The translations under genes were made by a program, and so were the position numbers. A stretch of 64,000 nt of DNA from Thermoanaerobaculia bacterium (GTDB lineage Bacteria; Acidobacteriota; Thermoanaerobaculia; Gp7-AA8), in the NCBI GenBank assembly GCA_041671505.1, contig JBAZBK010000010.1, forward strand, positions 46,838-110,837, written 5' to 3'. The notes under the pieces were generated by a model that did not search any database, had not been told where the DNA came from, and saw nothing but the letters and a program-made list of their open reading frames with translations. Shown piece after piece: positions 8,024 through 62,577 of this stretch (the first letter of the stretch is position 1; each line of letters starts with the position of its first letter).

Positions 8024-9361
8024 GTGACGCTCTTCGACGACTGGCCACCGCGACAGGCAGGCGCACCGGGGGCGCAATCTCCGCTCCCCGAGAGGATGCG
8101 CCCCCGCACGCTCGACGACCTCGTCGGGCTCGGCGAGCTTCTCGCTCCCGGAAAGTTCCTCCGCACGGCCATCGAGCGCGACCGCGTCCCCTCGCTCATC
8201 TTCTGGGGACCTCCCGGCTCGGGAAAGACCACGCTCGCGAAGATCATCGCGTCGACGACCGCCTCCACGTTCGTCACCTTCTCGGCGACCAGCTCGGGAA
8301 TCAAGGAGGTGAAGGCGATCATGGAGGAGTCGCGGCGCGCCCGTGAGTCGCGCGGCGTCCGCACGATCGTCTTCATCGACGAGATCCACCGGTTCAACAA
8401 GGCGCAGCAGGACGCGTTCCTCCCCTACGTCGAGCATGGCGACATCGTTCTGATCGGCGCGACGACGGAGAACCCGTCGTTCGAAGTCAACTCGGCACTC
8501 CTGTCGCGCTGCAAGGTGATCGTCATCCCCGGGCTGGAGCACGACGACATCAGGGCGATCCTCGACCGCGCGCTCGACGACGAGATCGTGAAGTCGCGGC
8601 GGGTCACGCTCTCGGGCGACGCCCTCGACTTCATCGCGTCGATCTCGGGAGGCGACGGGCGCCAGGCGCTCAACAGCCTGCAACTCGTGGTCGAGACGGC
8701 CGACTCCGACGCAGCGCCCCTCTCCCGCGAAGACGTCCGCACGATCCTCCACCGCCGCTCGCTCGCGCACGACAAGTCGGGCGAGTCGCACTACAACCTC
8801 ATCTCGGCGCTTCACAAGTCGATGCGCAACGGCGACGCCGACGCATCGATCTACTGGCTCGTGCGGATGCTCGAGGGAGGCGAAGACCCTCTCTTCGTCG
8901 CACGCCGGATCGTCCGCGCCGCCGTGGAGGACGTCGGCCTCGCCGACCCGGGCGCGCTGCGGCTCGCTCTGGGGGCGAAGGAGACGGTCGAATTCCTCGG
9001 GATGCCCGAAGCGGGGATCGCGCTCGCCGAAGCGGCGGTCTACATCGCGCAGGCGCCGAAGTCGAACGCGATCTACGTCGCCTACGGAGAGGCGAAGCGC
9101 GACGTGCACGAGGGAGACGACCCCGGAGTCCCTCTCCACCTGCGCAACGCGCCGACCTCGCTGATGAAGGACATCGGCTACGGCGACGGTTACAGCTACG
9201 CGCATGATTTCGCCGAGCAGACGGCGCCGATGGACTGCCTTCCCGAGAGCCTCGCGGGGCGCCGCTACTACCGTCCGAAGGAATCGGGGCTCGAGCGGCA
9301 GATTCGCGACCGTCTGGAGGCGCTCCGGGCCGCCCGCGAGGAAATGCGGAAGCGGCGTTAG
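8024..9361 (+). CDS. rarA: Replication-associated recombination protein A (RarA/MgsA AAA+ ATPase)
   Basis: LDDLVGLGELL...LIFWGPPGSGKTTLAKIIA Walker A, the RarA-specific MgsA C-terminal region, and a GTG start 8 nt after the upstream stop. The N-terminal part of ORF 7841..9361 overlaps the previous gene and is not coding. Confidence 0.85.
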   Translation: MTLFDDWPPRQAGAPGAQSPLPERMRPRTLDDLVGLGELLAPGKFLRTAIERDRVPSLIFWGPPGSGKTTLAKIIASTTASTFVTFSATSSGIKEVKAIMEESRRARESRGVRTIVFIDEIHRFNKAQQDAFLPYVEHGDIVLIGATTENPSFEVNSALLSRCKVIVIPGLEHDDIRAILDRALDDEIVKSRRVTLSGDALDFIASISGGDGRQALNSLQLVVETADSDAAPLSREDVRTILHRRSLAHDKSGESHYNLISALHKSMRNGDADASIYWLVRMLEGGEDPLFVARRIVRAAVEDVGLADPGALRLALGAKETVEFLGMPEAGIALAEAAVYIAQAPKSNAIYVAYGEAKRDVHEGDDPGVPLHLRNAPTSLMKDIGYGDGYSYAHDFAEQTAPMDCLPESLAGRRYYRPKESGLERQIRDRLEALRAAREEMRKRR

Positions 9362-9977: not shown

Positions 9978-11930
9978 TCAGACGCCCGCGCGGGTCGTGC
10001 CGAGGAGCTGCTCGTTGGTGACGATCTTCGCCGACTTGCGCAGCTTCTCGAGCAGCGAGGTCTGCATGCGGCGAGCCTCGCTGCTGCGGAGGCTCTGCAT
10101 GAACCTCTCCTTCTCGGTCTGCCAGACGGCGGGATCGAACTGCTTCTTCTCGACGATGCGGGCGATCACCGCCCCCTGCTCGACGGCGACGGGGCCGACG
10201 GTCTGTCCCGACGCGCCGGCAAAGACCGCGTCGACGAGCGGAGCGACGTCGCCTGCAAGCTTCTGCACGGCACCGCCGCGGGTCACGTTCGATTCCTCGA
10301 CGGTGAGGCCGAGCTTCTTGGCGACCGCTTCGAGCGGCTCGTTGCCGGCCGCCGTCCGGAGCTCCGCCGCCGCGTTGGCGGCAGCTTTCGCCTTGCGCGC
10401 CTCGGCCTCGACTCGATCCTTCACGTCGGCGAGCTCGGAGATCCCGGCCGGCCGGCTCGAATCGAACCACGCCACGATCGGACCGCGATCGGTGTCGATG
10501 ATCTCGCTGATCTCGCCCGGCTTCGCGGCGAAGGCCCAGTCCGCCAGGCCGGCGACGCGGCCGAGGCCGAAGATCGATCCGCTCTTCTCGAACCACTGCG
10601 TGTCGTTGATCGCGACGTTAGGGCTGGCCTCGGCGATGGCGCGGAGGGCCGCCTCGTCCTTCGGCTTGTCCTTGTCCATCTTCGTGCGCGCGAGCGCGAT
10701 GGCGTCGCGCGCCATCGTCCGCGAGCGCTCGTCGGTATAGCGGCCGACGAGCTCGCCTTTCACTTCCTCGAACGGACGGTATCCCTCGGCGCGCTTCTCG
10801 CTGACGCGAAGGATGTGGTAGCCGAACTGCGTCTTCACCGGGTCGCTGATCTCGCCGATCTTGAGCGAGAACGCGGCGTTCTCGAATTCCGGCACCATGC
10901 GGCCGCGCTCGAAGAAGCCGACGTCGCCGCCGCGCGTCTTCGAGCCGGGGTCCTCGGAGTTCTCCGCGGCGAGCTTGGCGAAATCGGCGCCGGCGCGCAG
11001 CTGGGCGACGAGGGACGCGGCCTTCGCCTTCGCGGCGGCATCGACCGCCGGGGCTGCGTTAGGCGCGACGGGAATCAGGATGTGAGCCGCGCGAACCGAC
11101 TCACGGCTCTTGAAGCTCTCCTTGTTGAGGTCGTAGTACGCCTTCAGGTCGGCGTCGCCGGGAGTGACCTTGGCCCGCAGCTGGGCGAGGTCGGCGATCA
11201 GGTAGCGGACGCGGCGCTGCTCGCCGTGCGCGTACTTGTTCACGTTCGCCTTGTACTGGGCCTCGATCTCCGCCGGGGTGACCTGCAAGTTCACGGCGGC
11301 ACGCTCGCTCGGGAAGAGGACGTACTGGATCTTCGCCGTCTCGCTGCGCTGGCGGTACTCCGCCTCCGCCGCGGCGGGCGAGAGCGCGACAGAGCTCATC
11401 AGCGCACTCTGCATCTTGCGGAGCGTGAGGTCGCGCTTGAGCTCGCGCTCGAAGTCGCTCACCGACGCGTAGCCCTGGCCGAGGATGTAGGTCTTGTAGA
11501 GGTCCGCGCCGACGAACTTGCCGTCGGGGCTCAGCACCGGGATCTCGAGGATCGCCTTGCGGACTTCTTCGTCGGTCGCCTCGAGGTTCAGCCGCTGCGC
11601 CTCCTCCTGGAGGAGCGCCTGATCGACGAGCTGCGCGATCACCTGCTTCTCGAGACCCATCGTCTCGCGCATCTGCGGCGTGATCTTCTGCCCGTACATC
11701 TGCTCGAAGCGCTGCTCCGAGTAGAAGAGTGCGCGACGGTATTCATCGAACGAGATCGTAGCGCCGTTCACGCGAGCCGCGGCGGCGCCGAGATCGTTCT
11801 TGCCGGAACCGCCGGTTCGTCCCGCGCCGCCCCAGTCGACGAAGATCAGAAGAATGAAGAGGGCGACGATAAATACGAGAATCCATTTCAGATGCTGGAA
11901 GCTGTCGCGCATCACCTTAAGCATGGGCAA
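9978..11930 (-). CDS. ppiD: Periplasmic chaperone PpiD (SurA-N domain + parvulin PPIase)
   Basis: N-terminal TM anchor ([15 protein letters not shown]), a SurA_N-like region, and a parvulin domain (...[14 protein letters not shown]...). 650 aa. Confidence 0.75.
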
Positions 11931-16267: not shown

Positions 16268-18202
16268 ATGAAGGTATATCGCGAAGACGAGAAGACGCTG
16301 CAAGGGCGGATCGACGTGCTCTTCTGGGCCGTCGTCGCCGCATTCATCGTCCTCGCCTCGTCATTCTGGTACGTCCAGGTCGTCCAGGCAGAGAAGTACC
16401 GCGACCTCTCCGACGCCAACGCCCTGCGCGACGTGACGGTGCGCGCCCAGCGCGGCCTGATTCTCGACCGGAAGGGGCGGGTGCTCGCGGAGAACCAGCC
16501 CTCGCACACGCTCGTGCTGATGCGCAACGAGCTCTCGCAATCGACGCGCCGCGACGAAACCCACCTTCCCCGCCTCGTCCGCTTCGTCTCCACCGTGCTC
16601 GGGCTGAACGAGGCGGAGGTCACGCGCCGCATCGAGAAGGGACGCGCCACGCCGGTCAACCTTCCCCTGACCATCGCGGAGGACCTGTCGATCCCCCAGG
16701 TCGCATCGATCGAGGCGGGCAAGCTCACCTTCCCCGCACTGTCGGTCGAGAGCACGGCGAGCCGCAATTATCCGAACGCAACGATCGCCGCACACGTTCT
16801 CGGGTACATGGGCGAAGCGAGCGCCGAGGAGCTGAAACGGCGGCCCGAGCTGCGGATGGGCGATCTCGTCGGACGGCGCGGCGTCGAGCTCGTCTATGAC
16901 ACGGAGCTGCGCGGCAAGGACGGCGCGAAGTTCATCGTCGTCGACAGCCACGGCCGGGTCAAAGAGGAGTACGACAAGCTCAGCCGCGAGCCGCAGCGCG
17001 GACAGAACATCTACCTGACCATCGACCTCGACCTCCAGCGCAAGGCGGAACAGTACTTCATGGAGAACGAGATGGTCGGATCGTGCGTCGTGCTCGACCC
17101 GCGCAACGGCGAAGTGCTCGCGCTCGTTTCGAGCCCCGCGTACGACCCTAACATCTACTCGAAGCGCTTCACGAGCACAGTCTGGAAGACGATCCTCTCG
17201 AACCCATTCAGGATCGAGGTCAATCGCGCGATCCAGGGGCTCTACTCTCCCGGCTCGGTGTTCAAGATCGTCATGGGGATGGCGGGGCTCGAGCTCGGAG
17301 TCATCGATGAATCGACGCAGTTCCACTGCGCGGGGAGCGAATCGTTCTACGGGCGCAGGTTCCGATGCTGGAACAAGAACGGCCACGGCTCGGTCAATCT
17401 CGAAGAAGCGATCAAGGTCTCCTGCGACGTCTTCTTCTACAACCTCGGCGCCAAGCTCGGCGTGAACCGCATCGCCGACTACTCGCACCTGCTCACCTTC
17501 GGCGAGCAGACGACGATCGACCTCGAAGGAGAGAAGCCGGGCCTCGTTCCCTCGGAGTCGTGGGCGCGGGACAAACAGAAGCGCAAGTGGTATCCGAGCG
17601 AGACGATCTCCGTCGCGATCGGCCAGGGCCCGCTCCTCGTCACCCCGCTTCAGGTGGCCAACATGATGGCCGCGATCGCCAACGGCGGCTCGGTGTACCA
17701 GCCGCACGTGCTCCACCAGCGCCAGGTGAACGATGCCGCGGGCAAGCCCCAGACCCTGACCGTCGCGCCGCGGCTGCTGCACAAGATCCATCTCGACCCG
17801 CAGGCGCTCTCCGCCGTGCGCACCGGCCTCTGGAGAGTCGTGAACGAGGCGGGAGGCACCGGCGCGAAAGCGCGCGTGGAAGGGATCGACGTGGCGGGCA
17901 AGACGGGAACGGTGCAGGTGGTCGCGCAGGAAGGATGGGTTCGGGCCGACGATCTCCCGTTCAAGTTCCGCGACCACGCATGGTTCGCATCGTATGCGCC
18001 GAAGGAGAACGCCGAGCTCGTCGTCGTGATCTTCGTCGAACATGGCGGTCACGGCGGCTCTGATGCAGCGCCGCTCGCACGCATCCTTTACGAAACTGTG
18101 TTTGCCGACAGGCTGCACGGCGGCGGCGGGCGCATCACCTCGCCACAAGCGAGAGCCACTGCGCCGCAGCCGGTCGGCCCCCCGCCGGGAACTGCGCGAT
18201 GA
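16268..18202 (+). CDS. mrdA: Penicillin-binding protein 2 (peptidoglycan D,D-transpeptidase MrdA)
   Basis: N-terminal TM, PBP dimerisation domain, and transpeptidase motifs (S-x-x-K context, SxN, KTG in ...VAGKTGT...). Confidence 0.85.
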   Translation: MKVYREDEKTLQGRIDVLFWAVVAAFIVLASSFWYVQVVQAEKYRDLSDANALRDVTVRAQRGLILDRKGRVLAENQPSHTLVLMRNELSQSTRRDETHLPRLVRFVSTVLGLNEAEVTRRIEKGRATPVNLPLTIAEDLSIPQVASIEAGKLTFPALSVESTASRNYPNATIAAHVLGYMGEASAEELKRRPELRMGDLVGRRGVELVYDTELRGKDGAKFIVVDSHGRVKEEYDKLSREPQRGQNIYLTIDLDLQRKAEQYFMENEMVGSCVVLDPRNGEVLALVSSPAYDPNIYSKRFTSTVWKTILSNPFRIEVNRAIQGLYSPGSVFKIVMGMAGLELGVIDESTQFHCAGSESFYGRRFRCWNKNGHGSVNLEEAIKVSCDVFFYNLGAKLGVNRIADYSHLLTFGEQTTIDLEGEKPGLVPSESWARDKQKRKWYPSETISVAIGQGPLLVTPLQVANMMAAIANGGSVYQPHVLHQRQVNDAAGKPQTLTVAPRLLHKIHLDPQALSAVRTGLWRVVNEAGGTGAKARVEGIDVAGKTGTVQVVAQEGWVRADDLPFKFRDHAWFASYAPKENAELVVVIFVEHGGHGGSDAAPLARILYETVFADRLHGGGGRITSPQARATAPQPVGPPPGTAR

Positions 18203-19344
18203 GCGAGCTTCGCGACACGTCATTCCAGACGGGGCCATTCTCGCGGCTCGTCAGCTCGCGCACACTCTCGCGGCTCGATCTCAACCTGCTCGGAACGGCG
18301 ATCCTCATCGCTGCCATCGGCAGCGTGCTCGTCTTCAGCGCGACCGCCGAAGGAAAGGATGCGCAGCTCTTCGGGAAGCAGCTCGTCTGGATCGCCGTCG
18401 GCATCGTCGCGATGCTGATCTTCACCTTCATCGACTACCGGTTGCTTCTCGACATCGCCCTGCCGCTCTGGATCGTCGGCATCCTGCTGCTTGGGTGGCT
18501 CCTCGTCTGGGGACAGGAAACGGCGAAGGTGAAGTCGTGGATTCACCTTGGCGCATTCCAGTTCCAACCCTCGGAGTTCGTGAAGATCTTCACCGTGTTA
18601 CTCGTGGCAAAACACTTCGACAGTCACAGCGAGCCGTATCTCACCTTGCGCTCGATGCTGACGCTCGGCGGCATCGTCGGGCTCCCCGTCGTGATGATCG
18701 TGGTCCAGCCCGACTTCGGCACCGCGGCCACCTTCGTGCCGGTCGCCTTCGCGGCCGTCTTCCTCGGCGGCATCAGGCCGCGCTTCTGGATCATCGGCAC
18801 TGTCATCGCGCTGCTCGCGGCACCGGTCATCTGGTTCGGCTTTCTCCAGCCTTACCAGAAGGAGCGGGTCATGATCTTTGTCGATCCGCAGCGCGACCCT
18901 CACGGATCGGGCTACCAGGTCATGCAGTCGAAGATCGCCATCGGTTCGGGGGGGATCACCGGCAAGGGGTTCCGCGAGGGAACGCAGGCGAAGCTGGAAT
19001 ACCTCCCCGCGCGACACACCGACTTCATTTTCGCCGTGCTCGGCGAAGAGTGGGGCTTCGTCGGCGTGCTCGTGATGCTCACGCTCTATCTCTTCTTCAT
19101 CACGAGCGCGCTGCGCATCGCGAAGTCGGCGCGCGACCGCGCGGGAACCTTTCTCGCCGTCTGTCTGACTTCGTTCTTCATCTTCCACATCCTGATCAAC
19201 GTCGGGATGCAGATTGGCCTGCTGCCGACGACCGGCATTCCGCTCCCGCTCGTCTCGTACGGCGGCTCGTCGATGCTGATGTTCTTCATCGCAACCGGGC
19301 TGATCCTCAACGTCGACTACAGAAAGTTCGTCAACGTCGGGTGA
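18199..19344 (+). CDS. mrdB: Peptidoglycan glycosyltransferase RodA (SEDS family)
   Basis: FtsW/RodA/SpoVE 10-TM protein. Overlaps the mrdA stop. Confidence 0.85.
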   Translation: MSELRDTSFQTGPFSRLVSSRTLSRLDLNLLGTAILIAAIGSVLVFSATAEGKDAQLFGKQLVWIAVGIVAMLIFTFIDYRLLLDIALPLWIVGILLLGWLLVWGQETAKVKSWIHLGAFQFQPSEFVKIFTVLLVAKHFDSHSEPYLTLRSMLTLGGIVGLPVVMIVVQPDFGTAATFVPVAFAAVFLGGIRPRFWIIGTVIALLAAPVIWFGFLQPYQKERVMIFVDPQRDPHGSGYQVMQSKIAIGSGGITGKGFREGTQAKLEYLPARHTDFIFAVLGEEWGFVGVLVMLTLYLFFITSALRIAKSARDRAGTFLAVCLTSFFIFHILINVGMQIGLLPTTGIPLPLVSYGGSSMLMFFIATGLILNVDYRKFVNVG

Positions 19345-19383
19345 GCCGGGCGCGTGGGCACTTCAGAAGGGCCAGCACCAGCT

Positions 19384-19545
19384 CTCATTCCGATCCCGCG
19401 AAGCGGGACGCAGCCGCGAGGAGGAATCTGCTGACAGATCACCTGACCGATTCCGCTCCGAAGCTCTACCCTCCGAGCGGAACCCGCCAGATGTGCTTTT
19501 GCAGATTCCTCGCTCTCCCGCTTCGCGGGATCGCTTCGGAATGAC
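19384..19545. mobile_element. MITE-like palindromic element, copy M1 (GTCATYCCGA-type termini)
   Basis: Termini are cattccgatcccgcgaagcggga ... tcccgcttcgcgggatcgcttcggaatgac (about 30-bp imperfect TIR). Internal motifs gaatctgct, ctgaccgattcc and gcagattcctcgc are shared with the copies at 33000, 40981 and 49055. Lies between convergent rodA and ihf. Confidence 0.5.
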
Positions 19546-20373: not shown

Positions 20374-20643
20374 TGTAGCCAGGGCGTCCCGCCCTGGCCC
20401 CCTGATCCCACAAGCGTCGAATCACCACGCTACGGGGGCAAAGGCCGGAGGCCTTTGCTACAGGGCTGACGCGGTGCTCGATGCCGAAGCTCGAGTTTGC
20501 CTCATGTAGCCAGGGCGTCCCGCCCTGGCCCCCGTTCCCGGGCGAGGCTGGATCACCTCGCAACGGGGGCAAAGGCCGGAGGCCTTTGCTACAGGGACCG
20601 CATCATCCCGCCACGCGTGCAAAGGCCGGAGGCCTTTGCTACA
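20374..20643. repeat. REP/BIME-like cluster: five GTAGC-headed GC-rich hairpins in alternating orientation
   Basis: tgtagccagggcgtcccgccctggcc occurs at 20374-20399 and 20505-20530 (a 30-bp exact repeat). The reverse-orientation unit gcaaaggccggaggcctttgctaca occurs at 20438-20462, 20569-20593 and 20619-20643. Lies between convergent hsp15-like and pheS. Confidence 0.6.
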
Positions 20644-20654
20644 AGGCCGACCGC

Positions 20655-25309: not shown

Positions 25310-25386
<77 letters not shown>

Positions 25387-25407
25387 GTATTGTCAATCCA
25401 CGCTATT

Positions 25408-25484
25408 TGGTAGGCGCTATCGGACTCGAACCGATGACCTCTACCGTGTGAAGGTAGCGCTCTAACCAGCTGAGCTAAGCGCCT
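25408..25484 (-). tRNA. tRNA-Val (anticodon CAC)
   Basis: Near-identical scaffold to the adjacent tRNA. Acceptor stem AGGCGCT/AGCGCCT, anticodon loop TTCACAC, encoded CCA. Confidence 0.85.
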
Positions 25485-31514: not shown

Positions 31515-31632
31515 CCTGAAGAACCTGAAGTTAGAACGTAGAACGGTGAATTGAGAACCCAGAAAGGGGGACCGGGCGCCTCCTTCTTTCTGGGTTCTCA
31601 ATTCAACATTCTGCGTTCTAACTTCGGCCTTT
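31515..31632. repeat. Foldback hairpin, subtype E copy 1 (xxxxGAA heptads)
   Basis: cctgaagttagaacgtagaacggtgaattgagaacccagaaagg ... ccttctttctgggttctcaattcaacattctgcgttctaacttcgg. Copies also at 41018-41122 and 62415-62513. Confidence 0.55.
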
Positions 31633-31720
31633 GACCAGACGCTGTCGTCGCCACGCCCGTACCCTCAACAGTGGCCGAACCGGCCCGATTGGTCTAAACT
31701 GCATCAAAGATTGCACTTGG

Positions 31721-32974: not shown

Positions 32975-32999
32975 GGCGGAGCGCGCCACGTGGTGCGAT

Positions 33000-33148
33000 G
33001 TCATCCCGAGCCCGCGAAGCGGGAGAGGGATCTGCTAACGACCAAGCTGACCGATTCCTCAACCACGAGTCGTGGCATGTGGCACGATCCATCGCCGCGG
33101 AGGCCGCCATTCACCTGTCGGCAGATTCCTCGCTGCGCTCGGAATGAC
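33000..33148. mobile_element. MITE-like palindromic element, copy M2
   Basis: gtcatcccgagcccgcgaagcgggagagggatctgc...gcagattcctcgctgcgctcggaatgac, between the convergent FHA gene and the spoIID-like gene. Confidence 0.5.
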
Positions 33149-33176
33149 CTGCTCTCGCCTGCGCCCGCCCCGCCGC

Positions 33177-35417
33177 CTAACGCGCCGCCAGCGACCCCAT
33201 CGGCACGATCGCCACGCCGCTGTAGTAGTTCTTCAGTATCGCGTCCGCCTTCGCGCCGCGCAGCGCCATTCCCTGCGAGCCGTTCTGACAGAAGCCGACC
33301 CCGTGGCCCCACCCCTTCCCGAGGAATGTGTAGCGGATGACGCCGTCGGCCCCCGTCAGCCTGTCGAAGACGAAAAGGTTGTCGGGGATGCCTAACGACC
33401 AGCGGATCGGCAGCCCTTCGAGCTTGAACGTCCGCCCCCCCTCCGCCTCGATCTCCACCGCGGTCGCCCGCTGCGACGCGTCGCGGCCGAGAATGCGGAT
33501 CGCGTGGAGCTCGCTGATCGGGTTGCGCCTGCTGATCGACGCGACGAGCTCGTCCGCGGTGAACGTCCTCACCCAGCTCGAGAACGACGAGCGGTTGTCG
33601 AACGCCGCGCCGTCGAAGTTCTCCTGCAGCACCACGCCGACGACCGCGTCGCCCCGGCGGAACAGCGTCGCCCGGTCGCCCGGCTGCGCCACGAGCTCCC
33701 GCTCCTCGCGGAAGCGGTCGTTCAGCTTGCGGAAGAGCGGCGTCCCCGGCGCGAAAATCGCGTTGACCTCGCTGTCCTTGCTCTTCACGACGACGAGCCG
33801 TCCGTCGCCGCGGACGAGGTTTCCGTTGAATTCGTTGAAGATCCCCATGTTGCGAAGCCAGCCGTAGAGCAGCGAGAACAGCTCGTCGCGCGTCATCGCG
33901 GCATCGAGGTCGCGCAGGTCGAGCCCGAGCAGCGAGGACGCCTCGAACTTCACCGCGACCGCCGCGACTCGCGCCGCGCGACCATCCTCGACTCCCGGCA
34001 TCAGGTAGCGGAGATCCTCGTCGAGCAGCAGCACCCGCGCCGCCTCGTCGAGTCCCCAGACCTCGCCGAGGTATTCGAGCACGTCGCGGCGCCGGCTCGA
34101 CTTCGGCGGCTTCGAGGAGCGCGGCGTGATTCCCGCGAGCGATCCGGCGGCCGAGACCGCCCTCGCGATCTGCGACGCGCTCCAGGCGGCGTTGACGTCG
34201 TCACCCTTCATCGCCACGGCACGCATCACCGCCGCGCGCATCCCGCTCTCGTCGGTCACCGCGCCGGTCTGCCGACCTTCGAAGTTCGCCGCCTCGAGCT
34301 CCACGCAGCGCGCGCGCTTGAGGTACGGCTCGCTGCGGCCGGGAAACATCACGCCGACGTCGGAGGTCTCGCCGCCGCAGGTCGAGGTGTAGAGCGCGTC
34401 GATCGGCTTGCCGTCGTACGTGATCACGAGCCCTGCCGTTTCCTTGACGGCGCGGTCGGAGAGCGGATGCTCGGTCGACTTCCCGCCGTAGACCTGGCAG
34501 CTCGGCGTCGCGCAGATATCGAACCCTTCCGTCGCGTACTCGCCGCGCCGGCTGACGACGTAGGTGCGCGCCGCGATCGCCTGCGCCTTCAGCGCCTCGA
34601 CCTGGTCGAAGATGTTCGGCCCCATCTCGTTAGGCACGACGCCCCGGACGTAGTCCTCGAGGTTGAGCTCGTTGACGAGGTTCAGCGTGCCGCGCGTGTT
34701 GAGGAAGACGCGCGCGCCGCCGCGGTACTGCTTGCCGGCGATCGCGATCCCCTCCGCCTCGCGAGGCACGACGAGGAGCGAGCCGGTATCGAACGAATGC
34801 TCATCGCCTTCGTCGTCGACGAGGCGGAGCCGCTGCACGAAGGGCTGCGACGACGGGCGCCGCACCGCGAAGATCTCCTTCGGCCACCCCTTCGCGATGA
34901 GGTCGGAGCGCGTCGGCTGCGACGACGGCTCGTCGGCGAAGTCGCCGGCGAGAACCTTGTAGCTCGCCACCGCCGTGTCGAAGACGAGGTCGGCGCGGAG
35001 CCCGGTCTCTTTTCTCACGCGCTCGGCGAGGCGCTCGGCGCTCGCCTTGTCGGAGATCGCGCCGACCTGGATCGCGTAGACGACGCGCGACGACGCGAGC
35101 GGCGCGTGGACCGTGAAGCCGCGGACGATCGTCCAGGTCGCGGCTCCCGACCTCACCTCGTATCCGCCGTCGACTCGCGCGAACGACGCAGTCGCGAGAT
35201 CGCTCGCGAGCCCCACGCGTACGACCGGCTCGACGAGCGGCGCCGACGGTGTCGCCTCCTTCCGGAGCGCGTTAGGGTGCCGCACGTGCGGCTCCTCGCG
35301 CGCCGGTGCCGGCGCGGGAGCGGGCCTGGTCGCGACGGGAGCGGGCGCGGTCGCGCAGGAGAGCGCGAGCGTCGCGGCGAGCGCAGCGAGGGCGTTCGAG
35401 AGTCGCAGCGTGATCAT
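33177..35417 (-). CDS. SpoIID/LytB-domain protein (peptidoglycan lytic transglycosylase/amidase enhancer family), secreted/lipoprotein
   Basis: SpoIID signature ...NLEDYVRGVVPNEMGPNIFDQVEALKAQAIAARTY...CATPSCQVYGG...TSTCGG... Start at ATG 35417 (MITLRLSNALAALAATLALSC, lipobox-like). The ORF in the track is over-extended. Confidence 0.75.
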   Translation of the reverse strand: MITLRLSNALAALAATLALSCATAPAPVATRPAPAPAPAREEPHVRHPNALRKEATPSAPLVEPVVRVGLASDLATASFARVDGGYEVRSGAATWTIVRGFTVHAPLASSRVVYAIQVGAISDKASAERLAERVRKETGLRADLVFDTAVASYKVLAGDFADEPSSQPTRSDLIAKGWPKEIFAVRRPSSQPFVQRLRLVDDEGDEHSFDTGSLLVVPREAEGIAIAGKQYRGGARVFLNTRGTLNLVNELNLEDYVRGVVPNEMGPNIFDQVEALKAQAIAARTYVVSRRGEYATEGFDICATPSCQVYGGKSTEHPLSDRAVKETAGLVITYDGKPIDALYTSTCGGETSDVGVMFPGRSEPYLKRARCVELEAANFEGRQTGAVTDESGMRAAVMRAVAMKGDDVNAAWSASQIARAVSAAGSLAGITPRSSKPPKSSRRRDVLEYLGEVWGLDEAARVLLLDEDLRYLMPGVEDGRAARVAAVAVKFEASSLLGLDLRDLDAAMTRDELFSLLYGWLRNMGIFNEFNGNLVRGDGRLVVVKSKDSEVNAIFAPGTPLFRKLNDRFREERELVAQPGDRATLFRRGDAVVGVVLQENFDGAAFDNRSSFSSWVRTFTADELVASISRRNPISELHAIRILGRDASQRATAVEIEAEGGRTFKLEGLPIRWSLGIPDNLFVFDRLTGADGVIRYTFLGKGWGHGVGFCQNGSQGMALRGAKADAILKNYYSGVAIVPMGSLAAR

Positions 35418-37578: not shown

Positions 37579-38298
37579 CTACACCCACTTGCCCGATACG
37601 TTCCTGCGGTAGTCGTCGGCGTCGACCACGACCCGCTCCGCCATCTCGAAGAGCCTGCTACGGAGCCGCTTGCCGATCCGCGTCTCGAGCGACTCTTCCT
37701 TCGGGTCGCGCGGCTCGTCGAGGTAGTTCGTCGTGAAGATCGTCGTCCGCTGCTCGTTGTAGCGCGTGTTGATGATGTAGTAGAGCATGTCCTGCACGAA
37801 GAGCGTCGGCTTCTGCGAGCCGAGCTCGTCGAGCACGAGCAGGTCGGCCGTCAGGATCGGCTCGAGGATCTCCGAGCGGCTCGGCGCGTGGTCCGAGTCG
37901 ATCGACGCGAGAATCTCCTGGATGAGATCCTGGAAGTTCGAAAAGAGAAGCCGCCCCGGCTTCCCTTGCGCAATGATCTCGAGAAGCGCCGCCACGGCGA
38001 GGTGCGTCTTCCCCGAGCCGCACGGCCCCATGAGCAGCAGTCCCCGCTCGGCCATCGGCCACTCGTCGACGAGCCGCGCGATGCGGCGCTTCGCCGAGGC
38101 GAGGGACGGGTTGTTCCGTTCGTGAAATCCCGCGAGCGTGCAGTGCGGCTTGTAGCGCGCGGGGATCTGCGCGTTCTCCCGCTTGAGCGTCCGCCTCATG
38201 TCGGACTGGCAGTTGCAGGGACGCACGTTGAACGTCCCCGGCTCGGGAACCCATCCGGAACCGTTGCAAACCTCGCAGGTCGTCACCACCGTGTCCAC
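37579..38298 (-). CDS. DnaC/DnaI/IstB-family AAA+ ATPase with N-terminal zinc-ribbon
   Basis: N-terminus CEVCNGSGW...PCNCQ (Cys4), Walker A LLLMGPCGSGKTHLAVA, Walker B LLVLDELG, and sensor/arginine finger residues. Confidence 0.7.
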   Translation of the reverse strand: MDTVVTTCEVCNGSGWVPEPGTFNVRPCNCQSDMRRTLKRENAQIPARYKPHCTLAGFHERNNPSLASAKRRIARLVDEWPMAERGLLLMGPCGSGKTHLAVAALLEIIAQGKPGRLLFSNFQDLIQEILASIDSDHAPSRSEILEPILTADLLVLDELGSQKPTLFVQDMLYYIINTRYNEQRTTIFTTNYLDEPRDPKEESLETRIGKRLRSRLFEMAERVVVDADDYRRNVSGKWV

Positions 38299-38336: not shown

Positions 38337-38590
38337 GCGGGCGGGGCAGGAAATGTGGAATCCGGAATGCGGTCCGCGGAACGAAAACCGAAATGTAGAA
38401 TGTCGAATGTTGAATGGAGAATGTAGAAAGGGGATTCGAAGACTGGGACCGGAGATTGGGAACGCACGCCGATAGCCGTGGACGCTGACTATTTCAACCG
38501 CGCGAGCGCTTCTCCATTCGACATTCTTCATTCGACATTCTTCATTTCGGTTTTCGTTCGCACTCTGCATCCCGCATTCCGCACGCCGCC
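38337..38590. repeat. 254-bp foldback element with xxGAATG heptad arms (subtype C)
   Basis: Left arm ggcggggcaggaaatgtggaatccggaatgcggtccgcggaacgaaaaccgaaatgtagaatgtcgaatgttgaatggagaatgtagaaagggg. The right arm is its imperfect reverse complement (...cttctccattcgacattcttcattcgacattcttcatttcggttttcgttcgcactctgcatcccgcattccgcacgccgcc). It fills almost the whole 336-bp divergent intergenic region. Confidence 0.55.
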
Positions 38591-40971: not shown

Positions 40972-40980
40972 CAGCAGCGC

Positions 40981-41170
40981 CATCCCGATCCCGCGAAGCG
41001 GGAGAGGGATCTGCAGCTAATTCAAAGGCTGAAGTTAGAACGTAGAACGATGAATGTTGAACCCAGAAAGGCGGGTACCCGTTTCTGGGTTCAAAATTCA
41101 ACGTTCTACGTTCTAACTTCGGCCTCTTCTCCTCCCGCGTACACCTGTCGGCAATGCCGCCGCCTCTGCG
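40981..41170. mobile_element. Truncated MITE copy (M3) with a subtype-E foldback (41018-41122) inserted inside it
   Basis: catcccgatcccgcgaagcgggagagggatctgc matches the left end of M2 at 33/34 positions. After the inserted hairpin, M2-like sequence resumes (cacctgtcggca...). Confidence 0.5.
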
Positions 41171-49054: not shown

Positions 49055-49195
49055 TGACCTCCCGAAGCGAGGGAAGGAGGAGGGATCTCGCAGGCTGGCA
49101 TTCACGGGCCGCGAGACAGAGAATCTCCGACGAACCTCAACTGTACCAGCCTGCGAGATCCCTCCTCCCTCGCGCCGCTCGGTCGTCGGGATGAC
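49055..49195. mobile_element. MITE-like palindromic element, copy M4 (diverged)
   Basis: ctgacctcccgaagcgagggaaggaggagggatctcgcaggctgg ... ccagcctgcgagatccctcctccctcgcgccgctcggtcgtcgggatgac (about 35-bp arms, ends ...gggatgac). Confidence 0.4.
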
Positions 49196-57107: not shown

Positions 57108-57212
57108 GACTTTTCGAGGCCCCGCGATGCTGAGTTGCGGGGCCTTGGTGTATTCGGGCGATTTCGTGCGGCGGATGGAACTCGTTCCGCGAGATCTTCG
57201 CTGGATCGACGT

Positions 57213-57581
57213 CAGCGTTCGTCCGCGAAAACCGAAATGTCGAATGTCGAATGAGGAATGAAGAATGGAGAAACAAGGCCCGTCGCATTGACCCTTTCTT
57301 CATTCTTCATTCGACATTCGACATTCGACATTTCGAATTCTCGACCCCCTGCACCGACCTCGCCGATCGCCGAACGCACGCACGGCCCGCCTGAACAAAA
57401 CTCAGCGTTCGTCCGCGAAAACCGAAATGTCGAATGTCGAATGAGGAATGAAGAATGGAGAAACGAGGCCCGCCGCATTGCCCCTTTCTTCATTCTTCAT
57501 TCGACATTCGACATTCGACATTTCGAATTCTCGACCCCCTGCACCGACCTCGCCGATCGCCGAACGCACGCACGGCCCGCC
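57213..57581. repeat. Tandem 190-bp duplication, each unit containing a subtype C/D foldback hairpin (xxGAATG heptads)
   Basis: Unit 1 is 57213-57402 and unit 2 is 57403-~57581, near-identical. Each unit has cgaaaaccgaaatgtcgaatgtcgaatgaggaatgaagaatggagaaa ... tttcttcattcttcattcgacattcgacattcgacatttcgaattctcg. Hairpins at 57226-57343 and 57416-57533. Lies between convergent genes. Confidence 0.6.
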
Positions 57582-62308: not shown

Positions 62309-62414
62309 GGTGGGGTCACACCGAAAGATGAAAGTTTGCGGCGGGACCCCACTTCTTCATCTTCTTTTCGGTCTGACTCCAATGGCTTTCTGCTTCGAGT
62401 TAACGGAAGAGAAG

Positions 62415-62513
62415 CCGAAGTTAGAAGTTAGAACGTTGAATGTTGAATCCAGAAAGGCCTGAGCGGCTTCTTTTCTGGGTTCAAAACTCAACGTTCTAAC
62501 TTCTAACTTCAGG
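62415..62513. repeat. Foldback hairpin, subtype E copy 3
   Basis: ccgaagttagaagttagaacgttgaatgttgaatccagaaagg cctgagcggcttc ttttctgggttcaaaactcaacgttctaacttctaacttcagg. Confidence 0.55.
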
Positions 62514-62577
62514 TTTTCCTGCGTGAACTCACCGCCGTTGAGTCTGACCCAGCGGCGGAGGCGGGACGCCTCCGCCA

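Follow-up and report, generated by a model that had tools for sequence, protein, structure and literature searches.

The window analysed here, i.e., the whole stretch of 64,000 nt (66% G+C), contains four copies of a short non-coding repeat, referred to as M1 to M4. An earlier note on this DNA had placed all four correctly to within 2 nt (M3 begins at 40979). M1, M2, and M4 are located between convergent genes, as had been stated: M1 between rodA (+) and the gene of the HU protein (-), M2 between an FHA-domain gene (+) and a SpoIID/SPOR gene (-), and M4 between a PDZ-GAF-SpoIIE-type phosphatase gene (+) and a gene encoding a 243-aa protein (-). M3 is located 8 nt past the stop codon of a 778-aa gene on the + strand and is followed by another + strand gene; the distance from the + strand stop codon to the start of the copy is 8-48 nt for all copies. 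The HU protein is identical to that of the MAG GCA_016184115.1 (labelled “Acidobacteria bacterium”), in which the gene order also matches and rodA is 85% identical at the DNA level, and relatives of the FHA protein with 71% identity carry the label Thermoanaerobaculia. A scan of metagenomes for orthologs of the gene adjoining M3 returned one distant locus.

Mechanically called ORFs run through all four elements (e.g., 18042-19544+, 32990-33340+, 33001-33312-, 40853-41248-, and 48989-49891-), which bears out the suggestion that several ORFs here are spurious translations of the repeat. In Logan SRR18595301, a short-read assembly of this strain, one contig ends at window position 19527, within M1, and one starts at position 49172, within M4; such breaks are consistent with multi-copy repeats.

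M1, M2, and M4 each consist of two inverted units around a centre of 70-90 nt, with a total length of 141-162 nt and no coding capacity. In M1, a left hairpin unit on the + strand (19384-19431; CTCATTCCGA-TCCCGCGAAGCGGGA-...-GGAATCTGC) forms a hairpin of its own and is followed by a centre (19432-19500) that is an imperfect palindrome with a roughly neutral rate of change, and by a right unit on the - strand (19501-19545; GTCATTCCGAAGCGATCCCGCGAAGCGGGAGAGCGAGGAATCTGC as read on that strand) that also folds alone. The left unit of M2 (33000-33035, +) is a long form with the apex CCCGCGAAGCGGG, and its right unit (33121-33148, -) is a minimal 28-nt form reading GTCATTCCGAGCGCAGCGAGGAATCTGC on the - strand; the centre between them (33036-33120) has CTGACCGATTCC in common with M1 and CACCTGTCGGCA in common with M3. 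M4 has a left unit (49056-49090, +) with a degenerate outer end (two mismatches), a right unit (49154-49195, -; GTCATCCCGACGACCGAGCGGCGCGAGGGAGGAGGGATCTCG on the - strand), and an inner perfect inverted repeat of 23 bp (GGAGGAGGGATCTCGCAGGCTGG/CCAGCCTGCGAGATCCCTCCTCC) that spans 49076-49168 with its loop.

M3, in turn, is a solo unit (40979-41014, +), the right unit being missing. It had been described as disrupted, which is plausible: its unit matches the left unit of M2 at 34 of 36 positions, a remnant of an inner right flank like that of M2 (CACCTGTCGGCA; 41142-41153, +) is retained, and the place of the centre is occupied by an AT-rich palindrome of another repeat family (41022-41129). The internal blocks said to be shared by all four copies have a narrower distribution. 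cccgcgaagcggga is present in M1 (both arms), M2, and M3 and is absent from M4, and ctgaccgattcc and gcagattcctcgc are limited to M1 and M2. There is thus some kinship of whole elements within this genome, between M1 and M2 and between M2 and M3.

The self-folding unit

In the window, the unit has the consensus GTCATYCCGA, a GC-rich insert of 9-29 nt, and then GAGGRATCTGC. Its fuller form is (T)GTC-ATYCC-GA-[GC-GNA-GC or a longer GC-rich hairpin]-GA-GGRAT-CTGC, with a length of 25-48 nt. We scanned for GTCATYCCGA followed by GGRATCT 5-40 nt downstream, allowing at most one mismatch and using shuffled windows as the control. This identified six units (19384-19429+, 19503-19545-, 33000-33033+, 33123-33148-, 40979-41012+, and 49156-49195-), compared to 0.05 expected (maximum of one in shuffled windows). 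With two mismatches the scan added the left end of M4 (49056-49088+), consistent with the earlier description of M4 as diverged, and a doubtful match at 49246-49295-. Without the latter, the window has a total of seven units, i.e., three inverted doublets (M1, M2, and M4) and one solo (M3). The doubtful match (GTCATTCCGA), 8 nt past the stop codon of the 243-aa gene, has no recognisable 3' half and is possibly a decayed unit beside M4. The 10-mer terminus alone, at one mismatch, has 23 matches vs. 13.4 expected. The signal is therefore carried by the two-part unit, which is enriched more than 100-fold, and not by the weakly enriched 10-mer.

The unit folds into a conserved basal stem of 5 bp, tandem G.A mismatches, and a variable apical stem-loop. 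Among units with a perfect GAGGRATC end, the pair Y6/R22 covaries (T-A in 55 units, C-G in 47, T-G in 3, and C-A in none). We also collected 22 distinct 25-nt units via anchors that leave the paired positions free. For the structure ...(((((..((...))..)))))., 86% of the cells in this set are paired, compared to 73% in shuffles (none of 500 reached 86%) and 9-46% in controls with slid partners, and 17 cells carry double changes vs. 4.8 expected, with compensatory variants at pairs 6-22, 8-20, and 11-17. The apical part varies from about 7 to 30 nt and is a hairpin throughout, the longer replacements being exemplified by the CCCGCGAAGCGGG apex of M2. Nearest-neighbour folding returned the unit hairpin as the minimum free energy (MFE) structure for each window unit; as the energies are unremarkable, the case for the hairpin rests on the covariation, which is strong, and we conclude that the unit is a self-folding single-strand hairpin.

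The two strands of the unit are not equivalent, given the invariant G-A/G-A positions and a loop that in most cases reads GNA. Both GA...GA and GNA-loop motifs, as in d(GCGNAGC), are very stable as single-stranded DNA. All units have CCGA immediately 5' of the apical hairpin; a GTAG/GTGG foot is absent, the foot being GTCAT/CCGA. Among the Rfam covariance models run on the window, only those of two tRNAs reached the gathering score, and relaxed E-values gave no meaningful match for M1, M2, and three foreign loci. A full-text literature search with six exact variants of the unit found no paper containing them.

Besides folding as units, each copy had been said to fold into a long imperfect palindrome. 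This holds for M1 (RNA MFE of -87.7 kcal/mol, z of -8.8 vs. shuffles) and M4 (-77.8, z of -6.7), and is weak for M2 (z of -2.4). In M2 the covarying pair is C-G in the left unit and T-A in the right unit, so that each unit pairs perfectly with itself and the left-right hairpin is imperfect. Selection on the long left-right hairpin was therefore rejected: compensatory changes are absent from the four M1 orthologs, including their centres, and the units of M2, which pair only with themselves, mismatch each other. The long palindrome is thus a by-product of the doublet architecture and not a conserved structure.

Copies at orthologous sites and in other genomes

To compare the HU-rodA spacer, we used contigs of ten related strains that encode an identical HU protein. 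The spacer is 65-68 nt long and free of M1 in six relatives, and 267-275 nt long in the window and three relatives, where it contains M1 and about 40 further nt (19345-19383 in the window). These 40 nt are found only together with M1, and either belong to the inserted DNA or represent a second event. In the remaining strain (L120, 2731-2900) the spacer is 170 nt long and carries, at the place of M1, an unrelated GC-rich and hairpin-rich insert of about 100 nt, which indicates that this spot takes up various elements. The site is empty in the outgroup. As one empty lineage is about equidistant with the filled ones (rodA identity of 0.88-0.92), gain after its split and loss within it both fit. 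M2 is present in the FHA-SpoIID spacer of one relative (L150). In a sister lineage without M1 and M2 (L147), the place of M2 in the orthologous stretch (10319-10941, corresponding to window 32975-33176) is taken by a 580-nt cluster of canonical REPs with a GTAG foot, and one such REP, GTAGCCGGTGGCAAGTCCCGCGAAGCGGGACGCGGCCACCGG, shares the apical TCCCGCGAAGCGGGACGC with the left unit of M1. Both M1 and M2 are therefore polymorphic for presence or absence at orthologous spacers.

Where M1 is present (four orthologs), identity is 97% in the left unit and 90% in the right unit, 72% in the centre, 65% in the extra 40 nt, 75% in the rest of the spacer, and 92-96% in the adjacent coding ends. The M1 units are thus as conserved as coding sequence, and either evolve more slowly than neutral DNA or get renewed from other copies. 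Between M2 and its L150 ortholog, identity is 94% in the left unit and 87% in the centre, compared to 79% at third codon positions of the FHA gene; since this centre is no less conserved than neutral sites, the pattern of conserved units around a neutral centre rests mainly on M1. In the L150 copy (8044-8200) the right unit is of the long form, CTCTCCCGCTTCGCGGGATCGGAATGAC, in contrast to the minimal CTCGCTGCGCTCGGAATGAC of the window (33121-33148). This exchange of an apical hairpin in place suggests conversion between copies.

The unit is widespread outside this lineage. Exact matches to a 23-nt sub-variant (CATYCCGANCCCGCGAAGCGGGA) are present at 48 loci among the species genomes of GTDB; apart from a few MAGs with other labels, these are MAGs of Acidobacteriota (Terriglobales, Thermoanaerobaculia, Angelobacter, and others). 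In IMG/VR, 62 contigs contain the general unit. BLAST of M1 to M4 against the fetched foreign loci gave matches of 28-40 nt that span the unit only; the centres never match. The fetched loci contain 34 adjacent pairs of a + and a - unit with lengths of 75-214 nt (together with M1 and M2 of the window, 35 non-redundant doublets) and, besides M3, 47 non-redundant solo units. Four doublets in the palsa_191 MAG are alike over their whole length, which indicates that whole doublets multiply within a genome. Against PLSDB plasmids (queried with a solo unit and with a doublet) and GenBank phages (queried with the same doublet), BLAST gave chance-level matches only.

The orientation of solo units relative to neighbouring genes, based on crude GC3-based gene calls, is antisense in 19 cases and sense in 14. 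Many foreign solos are followed by CTGC and then a T run, which always comes after this 4-nt spacer. In about 11 of the 47, the unit is followed by TGCTTTT and tandem heptamers (CTGGTCG, TGATTAC, TGCTAAT/TGCCAAT, and CCACTAT; loci L007, L015, L020, L026, L052, L059, L073, and L091), reminiscent of the STRR heptamer repeats of cyanobacteria. Five co-oriented units are present on one viral contig, three of them in the sense orientation 5-70 nt past the stop codons of same-strand ORFs. Two functional assignments were considered and rejected. The co-oriented viral solos do not represent integron attC-like or CRISPR-like elements, as they form no array and have no R'/R'' consensus, and the window copies are located among housekeeping genes. 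The window copies are not intrinsic terminators either, since no GC-rich hairpin with a T run within 0-2 nt was found in or beside M1, M2, and M4.

Copies are also present within coding regions. In relatives, four Ser/Thr kinase genes have an exact 75-nt doublet, i.e., 25 codons, inserted in frame, always in the same loop of the N-lobe (L070 4329-4403, L084 399-473, L076 1009-1083, and L102 2592-2666); three of these genes are from one Thermoanaerobaculia MAG and one is from GCA_016184115.1. The insert (VIPTSEARRDLLSADSSPASRDRND) is placed between the DVG strand and the YLVME strand, and a paralog adjoining one of the four kinases lacks it. Between L070 and L076 the insert is about 93% identical (counted by hand) and the kinase proteins about 55% (estimated by eye), a difference that reflects either repeated insertion at one loop or an element conserved in place. 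In L070, the codons after the insert (GPSLTSEMT) resemble a third, degenerate unit. Similarly, Rickettsia palindromic elements are in-frame palindromic inserts that leave coding genes unbroken, although they are unrelated in sequence and host, and the copies in our window are all intergenic.

With regard to marks of insertion, a check for the 2-10 bp target-site duplications that flank MITEs found that 33 of the 35 non-redundant doublets, M1 and M2 included, have no abutting direct repeat, and the rate of such repeats is no higher than in mismatched flank pairs. The comparison of filled with empty HU-rodA spacers agrees with insertion lacking such a duplication. T precedes the doublet in 29 of the 35 cases and A follows it in 27 of them, so that the inverted repeat reads TGTCAT...ATGACA.

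Nature of the repeat family

Taken together, M1 to M4 are probably members of a family of REP/REPIN-like, non-autonomous palindromic repeats that is widespread in Acidobacteriota and is probably handled as single-stranded DNA. The unit has much in common with REP/BIME/REPIN sequences of Proteobacteria, which are mobilised by RAYT (TnpA-REP, an HUH Y1 enzyme). Both have an imperfect-palindrome unit with conserved flanks that occurs as solos, in clusters, and as inverted doublets forming a long hairpin, mostly outside genes, after stop codons and between convergent genes, and without target-site duplications; occasional in-frame intragenic copies and persistence at orthologous positions are also shared. 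What is described here is a new family of an already known kind of genomic repeat. It is unusual in that its consensus spans a phylum, its units are conserved in place, and kinase genes carry in-frame copies of it.

We searched for a partner enzyme near the units. A regex for the HUH...Y motif, applied to six-frame translations of the window and all fetched loci (about 1 Mb), found no HUH/Y1 gene near units. Tyrosine transposase genes flanked by repeated palindromes (TIRtrons/REPtrons) have been described in Acidobacteria (Di Nocera et al., 2013, PMC3733652). Two acidobacterial RAYT groups (aba3477-like and aba1552-like) were retrieved with sequences from that work, and their genomic surroundings were inspected. 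Both are single-copy genes at fixed loci, one group flanked by GGGTGCCCCAGGTCTC...GAGACCTGGG and the other by GTTTGTATCAGGGCACGGCTTCAGCCGTGCC, and no convincing GTCATYCCGA unit is present within about 5-6 kb on either side of these genes. As they are flanked by different repeats, the two groups are unlikely partners of the unit. Class 3 TnpA-Y1 genes of Acidobacteria and Planctomycetes have flanking structures with a 5' CnGA foot, with about 600 copies of the associated structures in Solibacter usitatus (Quentin et al., 2018, PMC6006769). These structures share with our unit the phylum, CCGA before a GC-rich hairpin, high copy number, and REP-like behaviour, although the Solibacter sequence listed there (CCGAGCCGCGACTGTCAAGGAGCGGTTG) is not this unit.

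Under the REP/REPIN-like reading, the building block is the 25-48 nt unit, a self-folding single strand, which occurs either solo or paired head-to-head in inverted doublets with a length of 75-214 nt. It appears to be the doublet that spreads within a genome, which explains why centres are similar inside a genome and unrelated between genomes. Insertion proceeds without target-site duplication, and copies settle where they do little harm, i.e., past stop codons, in spacers of convergent genes, and now and then in frame in surface loops of proteins. We infer that a trans-acting enzyme, most likely of the HUH/Y1 type (RAYT-like), may recognise the units as single-stranded DNA hairpins, and cut and rejoin them without duplicating the target. 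Conservation of units in place may then come from this interaction, from gene conversion between copies, or from use by the host. Canonical GTAG REP clusters are also present in this genome, which indicates that REP-type repeats are active in the lineage.

Counting against this reading are the lack of a GTAG/GTGG foot, the lack of an adjoining HUH/Y1 gene in the 1 Mb searched, the association of the tested RAYT groups with other repeats, and the TG...CA ends. In addition, classical REPs are specific to a species or genus, whereas the consensus of our unit spans a phylum and some MAGs of other phyla, and the fixed basal stem, tandem G.A, and swappable apex of the unit are not REP features. We also put forward, only tentatively and with rather low confidence, that the 25-nt hairpin (ATYCC-GA-GC-GNA-GC-GA-GGRAT with GTC/CTGC flanks) is the recognition element of an undescribed partner. 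This would be an enzyme, from a new HUH/Y1 subgroup or otherwise specific for single strands, or else a conserved protein of the host. Such a partner would keep units intact over the long term, both in intergenic regions and in kinase coding sequences, and swap their apical hairpins, making this a phylum-wide REPIN-like system without a known RAYT.

Possible, but in our opinion unlikely, is that the unit is a structured element with a host function and not mobile DNA, e.g., a hairpin in the 3'-UTR of transcripts (for end protection, termination, or processing) or a binding site for a host protein, maintained by selection and spread mostly by descent. The position of every window copy shortly past a + strand stop codon, the sense units past stop codons on the viral contig, and the CTGC and T run after solos in many other genomes are in line with such a function, as are the retention of the 25-nt consensus throughout the phylum and, at the M1 site, a conservation of units equal to that of coding DNA. 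However, close relatives lack M1 and M2 entirely, copies are present within coding regions, solos occur in both orientations (as far as the crude gene calls indicate), no Rfam family matches, and M1, M2, and M4 have no terminator-like site in or beside them. A transcript-level role is not supported by the window copies. Host function is, moreover, compatible with mobility, classical REPs being both.

The earlier note had regarded M1 to M4 as a MITE-like family. It was right that this is a dispersed, non-coding repeat with inverted termini, and these properties are shared with bacterial MITEs such as Correia/NEMIS of Neisseria and Nezha of cyanobacteria. The elements are small (75-214 nt) and multi-copy (four loci in 64 kb), inverted termini of at least 10-15 bp (GTCATYCCGA...TCGGRATGAC) are found at M1, M2, the right end of M4, and the 35 doublets, whole elements are similar inside genomes, insertions are polymorphic at orthologous sites, and an automated survey reported many “MITEs” in phages of Acidobacteriae (PMC11602168). 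In a classical MITE, the doublets would be deletion derivatives of an IS whose DDE transposase binds the TGTCATYCCGA... termini in double-stranded DNA and moves them by cut-and-paste. TG...CA ends are typical of many DDE transposons. We nevertheless consider this origin improbable. Target-site duplications are absent from nearly all doublets; no + unit/- unit pair more than 214 nt apart, and no transposase between units, was found in the roughly 1 Mb of unit-bearing DNA, so that no parent IS is seen; and the unit, which is the only part conserved between genomes, also occurs solo, folds alone, and covaries within itself, none of which a duplex-binding transposase needs, and has an apex that is always a hairpin whatever its length. 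Conservation of units in place is likewise unexpected for dead MITE ends. At one foreign locus (L036), a 1.5-kb segment between inverted units resembles, as judged from its sequence, a phage capsid-type protein and not a transposase.

Finally, chance similarity among low-complexity GC-rich palindromes without a common origin, for which only the weak enrichment of the 10-mer terminus speaks, is refuted by the enrichment of the two-part unit, the exact 23-nt matches at 48 foreign loci, and the orthologous copies in related strains.

A high-copy hairpin repeat of this kind accounts for contig breaks in the fragmented MAGs that make up most known genomes of Acidobacteriota, which are abundant soil bacteria, for spurious ORFs (e.g., those encoding the peptides VIPTSEARRDL.. 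and ..SPASRDRND), and for odd in-frame inserts in real proteins, and its presence or absence provides markers for strain typing. If an enzyme acting on single-stranded DNA does handle the units, as in the REP/REPIN-like reading, the host-repeat association of the REP/RAYT type would be extended to a new phylum and a new recognition motif.

Other repeats and genes in the window

Between an S4-like gene and pheS (20384-20651), the window has a canonical REP cluster with a GTAG foot that consists of two types, GTAGCCAGGGCGTCCCGCCCTGGC on the + strand and GTAGCAAAGGCCTCCGGCCTTTGC on the - strand. These GTAG REPs are a family separate from the GTCATYCCGA unit. In L112, L113, and L114 this spacer measures 8, 146, and 208 nt, respectively, indicating that it is also subject to insertion polymorphism.

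A second family consists of AT-rich palindromes with heptamer-like motifs (GAAGTTAGAACGTAGAACG... or GAAATGTCGAATGTCGAATG...) at 31518-31634, 38379-38559, 41022-41129 (the one within M3), 57212-57581, and 62397-62530. They occupy divergent, convergent, and tandem spacers, and the copy at 57212 is a 190-nt tandem duplicate. Both L147 and L150 retain the palindrome at 31518 in the orthologous position, where CCCAGAAA/TTTCTGGG has undergone a compensatory change to CCCGGAA/TTCCGGG.

The window also contains a gene encoding an IstB/DnaC-like AAA ATPase (37579-38298, -) with no adjoining IstA-type transposase. As its location is conserved in L147, it is probably a helicase-loader-like gene of the host rather than part of an IS21 element. 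Two adjoining tRNA genes at 25313-25484 (-) are about 92% identical to each other.
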